Part shown: positions 12,701 through 17,540 of the stretch, in pieces
Position numbering within the stretch: position 1 is the first letter of the stretch
Layout of the letters: each line of letters starts with the position of its first letter
Assembly (NCBI GenBank): GCA_024232295.1
Contig: JAAEPT010000129.1
Span: 3,769 to 67,768, forward strand
DNA length: 64,000 nucleotides
Direction: 5' to 3'
Source of the DNA: Cytophagales bacterium
GTDB taxonomy: Bacteria; Bacteroidota; Bacteroidia; Cytophagales; JAAEPT01
Translations under genes and position numbers: made by a program
The notes under the pieces: model-generated
What the model was told of the DNA's origin: nothing
Databases searched by the model: none
The model's input: only the letters and a program-made list of their open reading frames with translations

Positions 12701-13627
12701 ATGAAAGTTACTGTAGTAGGTGCTGGTGCTGTAGGTGCTAGTTGTGCAGAGTACATCGCTATTCAAAACTTCGCTTCAGAAGTAGTAATCGTTGATATCA
12801 AAGAAGGTTTTGCTGAAGGAAAAGCAATGGACTTAATGCAAACTGCTTCTTTATTGAAGTTTGATACTCAAATCACTGGTAGCACAAATGACTACTCTAA
12901 AACTGCTGGTTCTGATGTAGCGATTATCACTTCTGGTATTCCTCGTAAGCCAGGTATGACTCGTGAAGAGTTAATCGGTATTAACGCTGGTATCGTAAAA
13001 TCAGTTTCTGAACAATTAGTAAAGCATTCTCCTGATATTATTCTTGTTGTAGTATCTAACCCAATGGATACAATGGCTTACTTAGCTCACAAAGCTACTG
13101 GTCTTCCTAAAAACAGAATTATCGGTATGGGTGGTGCTTTGGATTCTGCTCGTTTCAAGTACAGATTAGCTGAAGCTTTAGAATGTCCTCAATCTGATGT
13201 TGATGGAATGGTAATCGGTGGTCACTCTGATACTGGTATGATTCCTTTGACTTCTATTGCTACTAGAAATTCAGTAAAAGCTTCTGAATTCTTATCAGCA
13301 GATACATTAGAAGAAGTTGCTAAAGCTACTATGGTAGGTGGTGCTACATTGACTGGTTTATTAGGAACATCTGCTTGGTATGCTCCAGGTGCTGCTTCTG
13401 CTGCAATCGTTCATGCAATTGCTACTGATTCTAAGAAAATGATTCCTTGTTCTGCATTATTAGATGGAGAATATGGTTTATCTGATCTTTCTATCGGTGT
13501 TCCTTGTATCATCGGAAAAGGTGGTATTGAGAAAATCGTTGAGATTGACTTAAACGATGCTGAAAAAGAAAAATTAGCTAACTCTGCTGCTGCAGTTCAA
13601 AAGACTAACGGTTTATTAGAGTTATAA
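12701..13627 (+). CDS. mdh: Malate dehydrogenase (LDH-like)
   Basis: GAGAVG, PRKPGMTREEL, VVSNPMD, LDSAR, IGGHSD, GTSAWYAP. Confidence 0.97.
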   Translation: MKVTVVGAGAVGASCAEYIAIQNFASEVVIVDIKEGFAEGKAMDLMQTASLLKFDTQITGSTNDYSKTAGSDVAIITSGIPRKPGMTREELIGINAGIVKSVSEQLVKHSPDIILVVVSNPMDTMAYLAHKATGLPKNRIIGMGGALDSARFKYRLAEALECPQSDVDGMVIGGHSDTGMIPLTSIATRNSVKASEFLSADTLEEVAKATMVGGATLTGLLGTSAWYAPGAASAAIVHAIATDSKKMIPCSALLDGEYGLSDLSIGVPCIIGKGGIEKIVEIDLNDAEKEKLANSAAAVQKTNGLLEL

Positions 13628-13797: not shown

Positions 13798-14271
13798 ATG
13801 AAAAAAGTAGCATTAGGTTTACTATTAATCTTTGGCTTTTTATCTTTTGCAAAAAAAGGATATGATTATCGTAAACTGAATAAAAAAAGATTTGCTTGCT
13901 CAGCAGATTACAAACAACATGAAGAATTAGTATTGAAATGTGCAGATTTCATTCTATCAACTCCCATTAGTCAAGATGAACATAGAGAATGTGCCACCAA
14001 GTTTTTGATGAAATGGGCAAATGGTACTCCTGACTATCGTTTCGAGATTGACAAAACATTTGTAGACTTAACGAAAGGAAAAAATAGTGCAGAACTTGCT
14101 CCTCTTTATTTTGCCTGCCTCATCAAAACAGTGCTCACCCATGATAATATTTCTAAAGAGGAAATGAAAGAAAAAGCTCTTAATACATATCTTGATTATT
14201 GTGGGAACAGGAAGAATAGAGTAAAGAAAAATAAAACAGTAAAACAATTACTAAAACAACGTAAAGAATAA
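13798..14271 (+). CDS. Secreted hypothetical helical protein
   Basis: Signal peptide MKKVALGLLLIFGFLSFA; no family recognised. Confidence 0.75.
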   Translation: MKKVALGLLLIFGFLSFAKKGYDYRKLNKKRFACSADYKQHEELVLKCADFILSTPISQDEHRECATKFLMKWANGTPDYRFEIDKTFVDLTKGKNSAELAPLYFACLIKTVLTHDNISKEEMKEKALNTYLDYCGNRKNRVKKNKTVKQLLKQRKE

Positions 14272-14281
14272 TTTTTTTTAT

Positions 14282-14312
14282 AAAAGCTGATTTTGATGAA
14301 AGTCAGCTTTTT
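14282..14312 (+). terminator. Intrinsic terminator
   Basis: AAAAGCTGA...TCAGCTTTTTT. Confidence 0.75.
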
Positions 14313-14339
14313 TATTTTCATTTTTTCATTTTTATCCCC

Positions 14340-14347
14340 TATTTTTG
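14340..14347 (+). promoter_or_regulatory. Bacteroidota -7 promoter element
   Basis: TATTTTTG matches TAnnTTTG and ends 4 nt before the ATG at 14352. Confidence 0.55.
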
Positions 14348-14351
14348 TAGC

Positions 14352-14717
14352 ATGCTACACAATAGACATTTAAAGATTTATGGTTTGCTCTGCCTTTTGG
14401 TAGTCAACATCTTTGCATTGTCTATTATTACCCTAGATTTTCGCCTCAATCAGGATTTTTACATTGAGAATTTCTGTATCAACAAAGCAGAACCTCAGCT
14501 TCAGTGTCATGGTAAATGTCACTTGAAAAAGAAGTTGGAGAAGACAGAAAAAGCAGAAAACTCTATTCCTTCATTACAATTAGAATTTACAGAGCCCATC
14601 TATTTAGAATTAGAAATAAACAATACAATTTCCTCTTTTCTAAAACACCAAGGGCATTATCATATTTTTTACTCTGAATTATCTCCTCACGGAGTATTCC
14701 ACCCTCCTACCTGTTAG
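14352..14717 (+). CDS. Small Cys/His-rich membrane protein, putative metal-responsive leader ORF
   Basis: N-terminal hydrophobic helix, CINKAEPQLQCHGKCHL motif, C-terminal VFHPPTC. Confidence 0.8.
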   Translation: MLHNRHLKIYGLLCLLVVNIFALSIITLDFRLNQDFYIENFCINKAEPQLQCHGKCHLKKKLEKTEKAENSIPSLQLEFTEPIYLELEINNTISSFLKHQGHYHIFYSELSPHGVFHPPTC

Positions 14718-14773
14718 TGTTTACATACTCATTCATTTGAACTTAAATATGTATCACTTAATGATTTCTATTT

Positions 14774-15847
14774 ATGAAACACATAATAGGTTTGTGTGTG
14801 CTTTGTTTTCTGACAATAGCATGTACAGATCCTGAGAATGAAACAGTAATAGGTTATCAACTTGAGTATCCTGCTTATTTTCCACAAAAGAATGACATAC
14901 CAGTAGACAATTTGATGCAAGAAGATAAAGTTGAATTGGGTAGAATGCTTTTCTACGAAAAAATGCTTTCTGCTGATTCTAGTCTTTCTTGTGGTTCTTG
15001 TCACCAACAACAATTTGCTTTTAGTGATTCAGCACAGTTTAGCAAAGGAATTGAAGGAAGAAAAGGAGATCGTAACTCTATGGCAATTGTCAATTCATTA
15101 TTTGAAAAAAGCTTCTTTTGGGATGGACGAGCAAATAGCTTGGAAGAACAAGCGTTGGATCCGATCAAAAACCCTTTAGAAATGGATTTATCAATTGAAG
15201 AAGCCATTACGCGTCTCAAAGGAAGTGAAAAATATCAGGAGCTATTCACAAAATCTTTCGGAGAATCAGGAATTACAAGGGACAACCTAGCCAAAGCAAT
15301 TGCTCAATTTGAACGTACATTGATTTCTGGAACATCTCCTTATGACCTTTATAAACAAGGAAAAGGAAGTTTGACAGAACAAGAAAGACGAGGTGAACAA
15401 TTATTCTTCACACACCCTGAACCAAGTGTAGGTCTTAGGGGTGGAAATTGTGGTGATTGCCATAGCGGACCTTTGACAACCAATCGTTTATTTTCTAACA
15501 ATGGACTAGACATAGAAAGTATTGATTTTGGACTTGAAAGAGTAACTGGTTCAGCAAAGGATCGAGGTAAGTTTAAAATTCCTACTTTGAGAAACATAGC
15601 ACTTAGTGCTCCTTATATGCATGATGGTAGGTTTGGGACTTTGAAAGAAGTTCTTGATCACTATAATGAACATATACAACAAACACCAAACTTAGACTTG
15701 CTAATCATTGATGCTACAAATGAAGTAAATGGTACAAGTCTGGAATTAACGGAACAAGAAAAGGAAGATATCATTGCCTTTCTTCATACATTAACAGATA
15801 AAGAATTTATAGAAAATCCTGCATTTGCAGACCCTAACAAAAATTAA
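14774..15847 (+). CDS. Di-heme cytochrome c peroxidase, MbnH/MauG-like lipoprotein (copy 1)
   Basis: Lipobox TIAC; CGSCH and CGDCH; FFWDGRA; FKIPTLRNIALSAPYMHDG. Confidence 0.92.
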   Translation: MKHIIGLCVLCFLTIACTDPENETVIGYQLEYPAYFPQKNDIPVDNLMQEDKVELGRMLFYEKMLSADSSLSCGSCHQQQFAFSDSAQFSKGIEGRKGDRNSMAIVNSLFEKSFFWDGRANSLEEQALDPIKNPLEMDLSIEEAITRLKGSEKYQELFTKSFGESGITRDNLAKAIAQFERTLISGTSPYDLYKQGKGSLTEQERRGEQLFFTHPEPSVGLRGGNCGDCHSGPLTTNRLFSNNGLDIESIDFGLERVTGSAKDRGKFKIPTLRNIALSAPYMHDGRFGTLKEVLDHYNEHIQQTPNLDLLIIDATNEVNGTSLELTEQEKEDIIAFLHTLTDKEFIENPAFADPNKN

Positions 15848-15849
15848 TA

Positions 15850-16560
15850 ATGAAAAAAATAATTAAATATTTCGTAATCGCTTTAGTTAGCATTTTTGCT
15901 CTTACATCTTGTACAGAAGAAGATGTAGTTACAGATGGAACAGTAGTTTTAAAAATTAGTAATGTAGCAGATGATGCTCCACTAGTACTTGACAAAAATT
16001 ATACAAATGCTAATGGTGATCAATTCTCGATCGAAAACATTAAATACTATTTGAGTAATGTAACACTTACCAATGAAGATGGAACAACATATGAAGTACC
16101 AGATAGCTATCACTTAATTGATAACATTTCTGAAGATATTACACTAACTGATATTCCTTTGGGAACATACACTGATATTTCTTTCTCTATTGGTGTAGAT
16201 GCAGTAGCAAATAGCAGTACTGCTCAACCGGGAGATTTAGACCCAAGTAATGAAATGGCTTGGAACTGGGATACAGGATACAAATTCTTCTTGCTTGAAG
16301 GAAGATATATCAGCAAAAGTGATGAAGAAGGTACTTTCACTTTCCACATTGGAAAAAACGCTAATTATAAAACATTGAAATTCACAAAGACAATCACAAT
16401 AGAAGAAAATTCAACTATTGAATACAACTTCGAAGGTGATGTACAAGCTGTATTTAGTGGACCAAACACAATCAACCTAGAGACTACAAATAGTGCTCAT
16501 GGTGAGACTGGTGGTGATATTGCAGATAATTATGCAAGTAATTTCTTTACCTTAAAATAG
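15850..16560 (+). CDS. MbnP-family copper-binding lipoprotein
   Basis: Lipobox LTSC; KYYLSNVTL; FSIGVD; WxW motif EMAWNWDTGYKF; FHIG; flanked by MbnH-like genes. Confidence 0.88.
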   Translation: MKKIIKYFVIALVSIFALTSCTEEDVVTDGTVVLKISNVADDAPLVLDKNYTNANGDQFSIENIKYYLSNVTLTNEDGTTYEVPDSYHLIDNISEDITLTDIPLGTYTDISFSIGVDAVANSSTAQPGDLDPSNEMAWNWDTGYKFFLLEGRYISKSDEEGTFTFHIGKNANYKTLKFTKTITIEENSTIEYNFEGDVQAVFSGPNTINLETTNSAHGETGGDIADNYASNFFTLK

Positions 16561-17540
16561 TGCAAAAGAGATTCTATTATTTGTTAATGATAATATTAGG
16601 ATTTGCTTCTTCTTGTGCAGAGCCAGAAGAAGTAGATCCTAAATTTGTGATTGATGTACCAAGTCACTTAGGAGAAATGCCCGTAAGGGCAGAAAATCCT
16701 CTAACTTTGGGAGGAATTGCATTGGGAAAAAAATTGTTTTTTGACCCTTCTCTTTCTTCAAACAATCAAGTTTCTTGTGCTACCTGTCACCTACCTTCAT
16801 TAGCCTTTTCTGATGGTGTATCTTTATCAGACAAAGGAGTTTCTGGAGAACAAATGATAAGAAATTCTCCAGCTCTCTTCAACTTAGCTTGGCATCAAGG
16901 ATACTTCTGGGAGGGTGGAGCAAATGACCTAGCCTCTCAAGCATTTGGACCTCTCACTCACCCTGATGAGATGGGAAGTAACCTGAATGAAATCCTAGAA
17001 AAACTAAGAGGAAATACTGAATATGTAAATCTATTCAAGGAAAACTTTCCTCAAGGAATTAGTTCACAAAGCTTGGCGTTCGCTTTGGAACAATACCAAT
17101 TAAGCCTTATTTCTGCTGAAAGTCCTTATGATGATTATATTACAGGAAAAAGTATTCTCTCAGAGGAAGAAGTAGAAGGTCTAAAAATATTTACAGAAAA
17201 ATGTGGTAGTTGTCATGAAGGAAATCATTTTTCTGACTTCAAATACCATAGAAATGGAATTGATAGTGTATGGAATTATGCTAGTTTAGAAGATGCAAGA
17301 TGGGGACGTTTTCGTATCACCTTCGACAGCACAGATATTGGAAAATACAAAACACCAAGTCTTAGAAATATTACACTAACAGCTCCTTATATGCATGATG
17401 GTCGCTTTCAAAATTTGGAAGAAGTATTGACTCATTATCAAACACAATTCTCAATAACAGAACAAGAAAAATCAAGAATTATCAAATTCTTAGACACACT
17501 GACCGATGAAAAATTCATTCAAAAACATAGTCAAAATTAG
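16560..17540 (+). CDS. Di-heme cytochrome c peroxidase, MbnH/MauG-like lipoprotein (copy 2)
   Basis: Lipobox ASSC; CATCH and CGSCH; KYKTPSLRNITLTAPYMHDG; GTG start overlapping the upstream TAG. Confidence 0.92.
   Translation: MQKRFYYLLMIILGFASSCAEPEEVDPKFVIDVPSHLGEMPVRAENPLTLGGIALGKKLFFDPSLSSNNQVSCATCHLPSLAFSDGVSLSDKGVSGEQMIRNSPALFNLAWHQGYFWEGGANDLASQAFGPLTHPDEMGSNLNEILEKLRGNTEYVNLFKENFPQGISSQSLAFALEQYQLSLISAESPYDDYITGKSILSEEEVEGLKIFTEKCGSCHEGNHFSDFKYHRNGIDSVWNYASLEDARWGRFRITFDSTDIGKYKTPSLRNITLTAPYMHDGRFQNLEEVLTHYQTQFSITEQEKSRIIKFLDTLTDEKFIQKHSQN

Follow-up and report, generated by a model that had tools for sequence, protein, structure and literature searches.

To our knowledge, nascent leader peptides have been shown to control copper genes in only two systems, those of the proteobacterial proteins CruR and CutF, both members of the DUF2946 family. 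Joint replacement of two cysteines of CruR (C90S and C93S) reportedly abolishes the copper response of the downstream genes while their basal expression is kept. Arrest of the ribosome on CruR has been demonstrated in vitro (PMC12992588). Across DUF2946 the distance from the cysteines to a Pro-Pro motif is fixed at about 45 residues (PMC9426467, PMC9973294), and in CruR a change of this spacing by five residues impairs regulation (PMC9426467). Here, we describe a leader of comparable build from Bacteroidota. It lies in a 64,000-nucleotide stretch of the genome of a Cytophagales bacterium (GenBank assembly GCA_024232295.1, contig JAAEPT010000129.1; the whole stretch is called the window below, and positions are counted from its first letter), where a 121-codon open reading frame (ORF), P0001, stands immediately before genes for MbnH-like di-haem peroxidases, an MbnP-family copper-binding lipoprotein and a probable outer-membrane barrel. 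On the strength of its conservation, its gene neighborhoods and the geometry of its parts, we lean toward reading P0001 as a cis-acting, copper-sensing ribosome-arrest leader of this mbnH-mbnP-mbnH-barrel operon, of the CruR/CutF kind and evolved independently. The ORF and its parts are as follows:

14352-14717, forward strand: leader ORF P0001, 121 residues, a member of an unnamed Bacteroidota family
14370-14441, forward strand: codons of the single N-terminal hydrophobic helix, residues ~7-30 by hydropathy (residues 3-32 in the AlphaFold model)
14475-14522, forward strand: cysteine motif C42-x9-C52-H-G-K-C56-H57, putative periplasmic copper site
14523-14696, forward strand: linker of unconserved sequence and constrained length, C-rich and G-poor
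14697-14708, forward strand: F116-H117-P118-P119, proposed ribosome-arrest site (P118 and P119 invariant in the family, F116 conserved in at least 90% of homologues)
14715-14717, forward strand: stop codon TAG, two codons past Pro-Pro

A preliminary description, made from the letters alone, had seen in this ORF a membrane helix, the motif C-x9-C-H-G-K-C-H and a terminal FHPP-T-C-stop, all of which we recovered where it had placed them. The translation is MLHNRHLKIYGLLCLLVVNIFALSIITLDFRLNQDFYIENFCINKAEPQLQCHGKCHLKKKLEKTEKAENSIPSLQLEFTEPIYLELEINNTISSFLKHQGHYHIFYSELSPHGVFHPPTC, followed by the stop. The N-terminal helix, which is preceded by the basic N-terminus MLHNRHLK, is the sole strongly hydrophobic stretch of the protein by hydropathy and would act as a signal anchor, with its N-terminus inside and its C-terminus outside. 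In full, the cysteine motif reads F-C42-INKAEPQLQ-C52-HGK-C56-H57 and continues into LKKK; a charged helix and the linker separate it from the tail V-F116-H-P118-P119-T-C-stop. An AlphaFold2 model built from the family alignment consists of helices and coil only, with no globular domain (pTM 0.44) and pLDDT values of ~80-93 in the N-terminal half and ~60 between the cysteine motif and Pro-Pro. The last 200 nt of the ORF contain 21% C and 12.5% G, and this C-rich, G-poor 3' part may be a Rho-loading region; both Rho and EF-P are encoded in the source genome. Two RNA runs from the same sample held nothing from the leader locus. P0001 is the only protein of the source genome with a C-terminal HPP; the apparent depletion of HPP in its proteome (9 observed against 16 expected) was dropped as evidence, the counts being too small for any conclusion.

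P0001 is one representative of a large family. At E <= 1e-3, an exhaustive HMMER search recovered the representatives of 4057 clusters formed at 50% identity, with lengths of 105-135 residues in nearly all cases. By its profile, the family is present in 146 of 401 Bacteroidota genomes and 71 of 179 genera, usually in one to three copies, the source genome having one. Neither Pfam nor NCBIfam (the latter searched at E <= 0.1, its HYC_CC_PP model included) has a model that matches P0001 or any of 110 homologues, and no chain in the Protein Data Bank (PDB) is matched by the family profile; absence from Pfam and NCBIfam means that genes of the family are annotated as 'hypothetical' or missed altogether. 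Across an alignment of the 110 homologues the mean column identity is 22%, and only five positions, C42, C52, C56, P118 and P119, are invariant, with N44, P48, G54, L58, K60 and F116 conserved in at least 90%. The residue following the third cysteine is variable (H, Y, Q or F). By hydropathy, 146 of 160 homologues have one hydrophobic helix, at the N-terminus, and the first cysteine follows it by about 15 residues. The distance from the third cysteine to the first proline of Pro-Pro falls between 64 and 70 residues in 90% of the 298 sequences with both motifs (median 67, range 51-73); in the window, it is 62 (Cys56 to P118). The linker between them is unconserved in the 110-member alignment despite this constraint on its length.

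The tail has the consensus (I/V)-F-H-P-P. At 141 genomic loci, namely 140 fetched from across the phylum and that of the window, the four-residue core is FHPP in 60, FRPP in 19, SPPP in 15, DHPP in 11 and another variant in the rest; FQPP and FKPP also occur in the family, part of which has PPP tails (FVPPP, SPPP). Pro-Pro lies within the last 17 residues at 140 of the 141 loci and in 161 of 165 database proteins, most of the exceptions being truncated entries. The preliminary description had proposed that C-terminal HPP should be strictly conserved; this holds for the two prolines, which are invariant, and fails for the histidine, which precedes them in only about 60% of members (61% of the 298 sequences, the others having P, R, Q or K). 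Pro-Pro is found 1-8 residues before the stop, and the tail beyond it, 2-4 residues long at 87% of the 141 loci, has no sequence conserved across them. A C-terminal recognition signal, such as that for a protease or a PDZ ligand, was considered and is unlikely, because the tail varies in sequence and the motif stands at no fixed distance from the C-terminus.

Set beside CruR (Bp2923 of Bordetella pertussis; DUF2946/PF11162), the family shows the same plan executed with different parts. In either case a small gene opens a copper-uptake operon, and its product has an export or membrane segment at the N-terminus; invariant cysteines and a Pro-Pro 2-3 residues before the stop are held at a fixed spacing by a poorly conserved, probably unstructured linker; the ORF has a region in which C exceeds G; and the genes that follow are of the same types, namely TonB receptors with PepSY_TM, MbnPH-like proteins, SCO and PCuAC. 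In contrast, the sensor is C-x9-C-x3-C in the leader family and CXXC in CruR (P0001, with C42-x9-C52-x3-C56, has no CXXC), and the tail is (I/V)FHPP in the former and RAPP in the latter. The cysteines are about 67 residues from Pro-Pro (62 in the window) as against 45 in CruR, a spacing that would place them outside the translocon in the leader family and at the tunnel exit in CruR. The spacer to the next gene is 56 nt in the window versus 162 nt for cruR, and 29% of the leader-family members, unlike CruR, have a leaderless appearance.

Homology between the two was considered and rejected: PF11162 has no match in P0001 or the 110 homologues, and hhalign gives a probability of 0.4% for the leader family against RAPP-type DUF2946-like ORFs. 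When 151 Bacteroidota genomes were searched with PF11162, one match above the cut-off and a few weak ones were found, all of them outside the family loci. By these profile comparisons, the leader family resembles DUF2946 in architecture and context, not in detectable homology, and is an analogue of it rather than a member. DUF2946-like ORFs and the leader family occur in the same genomes at different loci in three cases (G013, G040 and G138), which means that one genome can carry two unrelated kinds of Pro-Pro leader. As a separate observation, the weak DUF2946-like ORFs of Bacteroidota (loci L173-L179) end in SRAPP or RGPP, and in the one that was counted, CxxC and Pro-Pro are ~47 residues apart.

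CutF of Rhodobacter capsulatus, a DUF2946 member with CxxxC, PPP and a cleavable Sec signal, is unlike P0001 in these respects; it controls a detoxifying multicopper oxidase and is switched on by copper, whereas the leader family heads uptake and chaperone genes. The two come closer at the RNA level: a stem that hides the next start and is opened by a ribosome on the Pro motif has been proposed for cutF-cutO (PMC9973294; bioRxiv 10.1101/2025.02.05.636593), and one is predicted likewise in the window, though such a stem is not conserved in the leader family. On bioinformatic grounds, Ozturk et al., 2023 (PMC9973294) also assembled a 'CutF-like' set, retrieved by iterative jackhmmer from CutF seeds and grouped into 29 clusters; 19-40% of it is from Bacteroidota, with TonB-like and PCuAC neighbors. 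The filters were a length below 150 residues, PP among the final 15, a signal at the N-terminus and, within 1 kb downstream, a gene on the same strand. P0001, with 121 residues, PP two residues from the end, an N-terminal helix by hydropathy and a spacer of 56 nt, falls within all of these limits. Full-text literature searches returned no paper that mentions FHPP or characterizes such a Bacteroidota leader. This agrees with the remark in the preliminary description that the family had no known characterization in this role; in view of the Bacteroidota proteins already listed as CutF-like, the general idea is not wholly new.

More broadly, the RAPP-like arrest peptides (SecM, ApdA, ApdP and the RQH classes; PMC10987492, PMC12992588) are, like P0001, small exported or membrane proteins encoded upstream of their target gene. 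They arrest on a C-terminal core, x-x-P-P, whose two prolines occupy the P and A sites, and arrest is released by pulling force on the nascent chain. Most of them monitor Sec or YidC, and the core follows the pattern [R/H/Q]-[A/G]-P-P, outside of which the F-H-P-P of P0001 lies.

The likeness in genomic context can be followed across the phylum. The 140 fetched loci were subjected to ORF calling, their downstream proteins were clustered and the cluster representatives annotated. Counting the window locus, a same-strand gene lies within 400 nt downstream of the leader at 136 of the 141 loci, with a median gap of 102 nt. The first downstream gene encodes a TonB-dependent receptor at 48 loci, with PepSY_TM next in 10 of these; at 27 loci the leader is directly followed by MbnP and then MbnH, at 22 by a YtkA-like lipoprotein and then a TonB receptor, and at 12 by a barrel-like protein, then SCO1/SenC and then PCuAC. 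DUF2946/cruR genes of Proteobacteria likewise precede receptor plus PepSY_TM, Sco, PCuAC and MbnPH-like genes (Roy et al., PMC9426467). The proposal that members should lie 5' of metal-uptake genes is therefore borne out, in that they head copper-uptake and copper-chaperone operons of the kinds found behind DUF2946/CruR.

In the window, the operon consists of the following genes:

14774-15847, forward strand: MbnH-like di-haem peroxidase lipoprotein (CCP_MauG, TIGR04039-like), the first gene proposed to be regulated
15850-16560, forward strand: MbnP-family copper-binding lipoprotein (PF20243)
16560-17540, forward strand: second MbnH-like di-haem peroxidase
17506-18552, forward strand: 348-residue exported protein with no match in Pfam, NCBIfam or the PDB

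The spacer between the leader stop (ending at 14717) and the next ATG is 56 nt, and a scan found no terminator-like site in it, as the preliminary description had said of the interval up to the first peroxidase. That description had also spoken of an mbnPH operon: a copper operon does lie downstream, but its gene order is mbnH-mbnP-mbnH-barrel. The closest relative (48% identity) has the identical order mdh, leader, mbnH, mbnP, mbnH and the gene for the 348-residue protein. The latter is probably an outer-membrane barrel and a candidate outer-membrane copper channel of unknown fold. Among the proteins encoded downstream in leader-headed operons, its homologues make up the second-largest cluster. 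They are ~320 residues long and have an N-terminal patch rich in cysteine (CDC or CDACGC, for example); they directly follow the leader at 26 loci, in 12 of which SCO1 and PCuAC come next, and are encoded by the third gene at 18 loci, mostly after MbnP-MbnH.

A further feature of these neighborhoods bears on how the leader might act. In nine genomes, two family genes lie on the same strand 2-4 kb apart, each heading its own sub-operon (e.g., G051:C12:527290/531061 and G339:C1:3118577/3122173); typically, MbnP-MbnH follows one of them, and a YtkA-like gene with a TonB receptor follows the other. Two copies at such a distance, one per sub-operon, are the pattern expected of a cis-acting leader and not of a shared trans-acting protein.

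The leader also tends to lie at the very start of its transcript. Two features upstream of the ORF are relevant here:

14282-14311, forward strand: terminator-like hairpin of 13 bp followed by a T-run, which ends the upstream 157-residue gene
14340-14347, forward strand: TATTTTTG, a -7 promoter box of the Bacteroidota type (TAnnTTTG) with its end 4 nt upstream of the ATG

The hairpin with its T-run confines the promoter to the ~40 nt that contain the -7 box, for which we used the Bacteroidota consensus from PMC7366714. A -33-like TTTC, one mismatch away from TTTG, lies ~20 nt upstream of the box at 14316-14319. In this AT-rich window a single TAnnTTTG is unremarkable (112 matches against 101 +/- 11 expected). 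Its position in the family is another matter: a box 3-8 nt before an in-frame ATG, GTG or TTG is present at 41 of the 141 family loci (29%) as against 19 of 928 neighboring genes (2%), an odds ratio of ~20 (p = 9e-25), and in 33 further family loci the box lies 9-45 nt upstream. For comparison, ~3.7% of the mRNAs of Bacteroides thetaiotaomicron have a 5' untranslated region (UTR) shorter than 10 nt, the commonest length being 23 nt (PMC7366714). The leader mRNA in the window is predicted to be leaderless or nearly so. The positional enrichment of the box argues that a leaderless layout is a trait of the family, though not a universal one, and that the gene is the first in its own transcript. 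The preliminary description had taken the TAnnTTTG 4 nt before the ATG to mean that the mRNA may be leaderless, and both the box and the enrichment of this layout in the family support it; its wider suggestion, of a Bacteroidota analogue of the CruR-type leader using xHPP, fared as predicted in the comparative tests, with respect to Pro-Pro, operon position, leaderless layout and lack of kinship with DUF2946. Members whose -7 box lies 4-6 nt upstream often begin with GTG or TTG (e.g., TAATTTTGCACGGTGAAAAAA); translation of a leaderless mRNA would then start at a codon other than AUG, an arrangement that would be unusual.

The ORFs of the family are also biased in composition. C exceeds G in the last 200 nt at 94% of the family loci versus 31% of other ORFs (p = 7e-52), with averages of 23.1% C and 16.2% G. 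The bias resides mostly at codon positions 1 and 2 and is smaller, though still significant, at position 3 (p = 6e-5). A Rho-loading site of cruR has been mapped to a region of C in excess of G (PMC9426467). We considered the family-wide bias as the mark of a Rho site and retain it as suggestive only: it is real, but mostly a matter of amino-acid composition.

The main rival to a cis-acting arrest leader, and one that we judge unlikely, is that the product of the ORF is a stable periplasmic protein that binds copper and is anchored in the membrane. Working in trans, it would be a chaperone, thiol-redox partner or assembly factor alongside MbnP/MbnH, the receptor or SCO1/PCuAC; FHPP would then be a structural or ligand motif, whose histidine could bind copper. 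Three invariant cysteines and conserved histidines just outside a membrane anchor, together with the strict co-occurrence of the gene with copper-handling genes, are what such a protein would offer, and the pLDDT of ~80-93 over the N-terminal half is in keeping with it. The segment of some 60 residues between the cysteines and Pro-Pro, however, is unconserved, has a pLDDT of ~60 and has no globular fold, and the position of Pro-Pro 1-8 residues from a C-terminus with variable tails speaks against recognition of that end. Against this rival also stand the separate copies heading adjacent sub-operons in nine genomes and the fact that the gene invariably opens the operon, in many cases on an apparently leaderless mRNA. 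CruR and CutF, its analogues, are moreover rapidly degraded and have no known mature role (PMC9426467, PMC9973294).

How a cis-acting leader might control mbnH in the window is suggested by the RNA that joins the two genes, in which a helix is predicted between these arms:

14709-14727, forward strand: 5' arm, comprising the last two codons of the leader (Thr, Cys), the stop and 10 nt beyond
14773-14791, forward strand: 3' arm, comprising the mbnH AUG (14774-14776) and the first codons

The fold of 14694-14800 contains this long helix, with a z-score of -2.5 to -2.9 relative to dinucleotide shuffles. With Pro118 or Pro119 in its P site, a ribosome would extend 10-13 nt into the 5' arm (14709 to 14718-14721). 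In the partition function, the probability that the mbnH AUG is unpaired is 0.05 in the free RNA and ~0.5 with the ribosome footprint centred on either Pro118 or Pro119, and it stays at 0.05 with the footprint placed 30 nt further upstream.

With an arrest leader of the kind favored here, the sequence of events would be the following. Transcription would start at or beside the ATG, as the promoter box suggests, giving a leaderless mRNA, and the N-terminal helix would insert co-translationally, so that the three-cysteine motif would reach the periplasm. Once the ribosome is at F-H-P118-P119, 62 residues would separate Cys56 from the peptidyl-transferase centre. By the estimate of the CutF authors, ~30 residues occupy the ribosomal tunnel and ~17 cross the membrane (PMC9973294), and by this geometry 62 residues, or 62-67 across the family, should suffice for tunnel (~30 aa) and translocon (~17 aa), leaving the cysteine site fully outside the membrane and the translocon. 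Slow formation of the Pro-Pro peptide bond would cause the ribosome to pause two codons before the stop, and the paused ribosome would keep the downstream genes on. In the window it would do so by melting the helix of 14709-14727 with 14773-14791, in which the mbnH AUG is hidden; elsewhere in the family it could shield the C-rich, G-poor stretch from Rho. Copper on the cysteines would alter the pulling force on the nascent chain and thereby the length of the pause. Under the polarity of CruR, copper would release the pause and turn the operon off, and we regard this polarity as likelier than that of CutF because the controlled genes are uptake genes.

The reverse polarity is the core of a second rival, a strictly CutF-type system in which copper would prolong the stall and turn the downstream genes on, with MbnPH serving the handling of excess copper and not its acquisition. 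The CutF-like PPP tails (FVPPP, SPPP) of part of the family would suit it, as would the stem that hides the start codon in the window in the manner of the cutF-cutO spacer (PMC9973294; bioRxiv 10.1101/2025.02.05.636593). We nonetheless hold it to be improbable, because the downstream genes are for uptake and chaperones (TonB receptors, PepSY_TM, SCO1, PCuAC, MbnP) and not for efflux pumps or oxidases, and because the equivalent operon of Bordetella is repressed by copper (PMC9426467). Least probable of all, to our mind, is a plain translational-coupling leader without metal sensing, whose translation would constitutively unfold the next start or block Rho while copper control resides elsewhere, for example, in a transcription factor at the promoter: any ribosome reaching the stop would indeed open the helix in the window, but that helix is not general in the family, and plain coupling leaves unexplained the three invariant exported cysteines, the fixed Cys-to-PP spacing and the invariant Pro-Pro of thousands of homologues.

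Several results weigh against an arrest leader of the form proposed above. FHPP is not among the demonstrated arrest motifs (RAPP, RGPP, HAPP, QAPP and the PPP of CutF), and the residue that follows Pro-Pro is not a known strong staller (PMC10987492, PMC12992588). In the two closest relatives, the -7 box lies ~28 nt upstream of the ATG, so that their mRNAs are not leaderless, and the site corresponding to the helix has no significant structure (z ~0). Across the family, the mean change in AUG accessibility at 107 loci is no different from that of 159 control gene pairs (p = 0.66), and a strong predicted opening of the start codon is seen at only 11% of family loci, as against 3% of control pairs (Fisher p = 0.007). 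The excess of C over G may simply reflect a linker rich in Ser, Thr and Pro. Finally, the fixed length and the invariance of the Cys and Pro residues are also compatible with a small, stable protein that binds copper, in which a fixed length could reflect a folded unit.

A CutF-type stem was accordingly considered as a feature of the family and is not claimed, being absent in the two closest relatives and having a mean effect no different from that of the controls, with a strong effect in a subset only; how the proposed pause is read out downstream probably varies from locus to locus. Two minor observations concern this part of the RNA. A second TAnnTTTG (TAGGTTTG) lies at 14787-14794 on the forward strand, inside the 3' arm and just past the mbnH start codon; it is probably fortuitous, because the motif is common in the window, at about the frequency expected by chance. 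At another family locus, L172, the Phe-His codons UUUCAU (967-972) pair with the start of the next gene (1053-1058), being the exact reverse complement of AUGAAA. AUGAAA encodes Met-Lys, the usual start of a signal peptide, and the pairing may be a coincidence; in the window such a pairing does not arise, since the codons there are UUC CAC.

Taken as a whole, the family most likely represents, on the comparative evidence, a convergent, Bacteroidota-wide counterpart of the DUF2946 leaders, with its own sensor motif, spacing, proposed arrest core and leaderless tendency. Bacteroidota are a phylum whose ribosomes work without Shine-Dalgarno use. We tentatively advance a more specific hypothesis, which we consider possible and would stop short of calling probable: that the family is a second, independently evolved and Bacteroidota-specific class of copper-sensing arrest peptides, in which a Cys3 site, kept ~67 residues away from the peptidyl-transferase centre, would sense periplasmic copper from a position outside the translocon. 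On a leaderless mRNA, the first ribosome, just behind RNA polymerase, would pause on F-H-P-P, and this pause would decide whether Rho loads on the C-rich, G-poor 3' part or, at loci like that of the window, whether the next start is unmasked; FHPP would then be a new arrest core.

A family that shares the architecture of CruR/CutF and is unrelated to them is present in about one third of the sampled Bacteroidota genomes, including marine, soil and gut lineages, and stands before the main predicted copper-uptake genes of the phylum. If the proposed role is right, it would account for the regulation of copper import in Bacteroidota, would extend the described arrest motifs and sensor-to-ribosome spacings by one each, and would provide a natural case tying leaderless initiation to attenuation. 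Defining the family would also improve the annotation of thousands of operons.

One neighbor of the leader differs between otherwise syntenic relatives. The 157-residue gene that ends at the terminator-like hairpin is absent from the closest relative (L171); in the window, it occupies 13798-14271 on the forward strand, between mdh (12701-13627) and the leader, and encodes a lipoprotein-like product with no family match.

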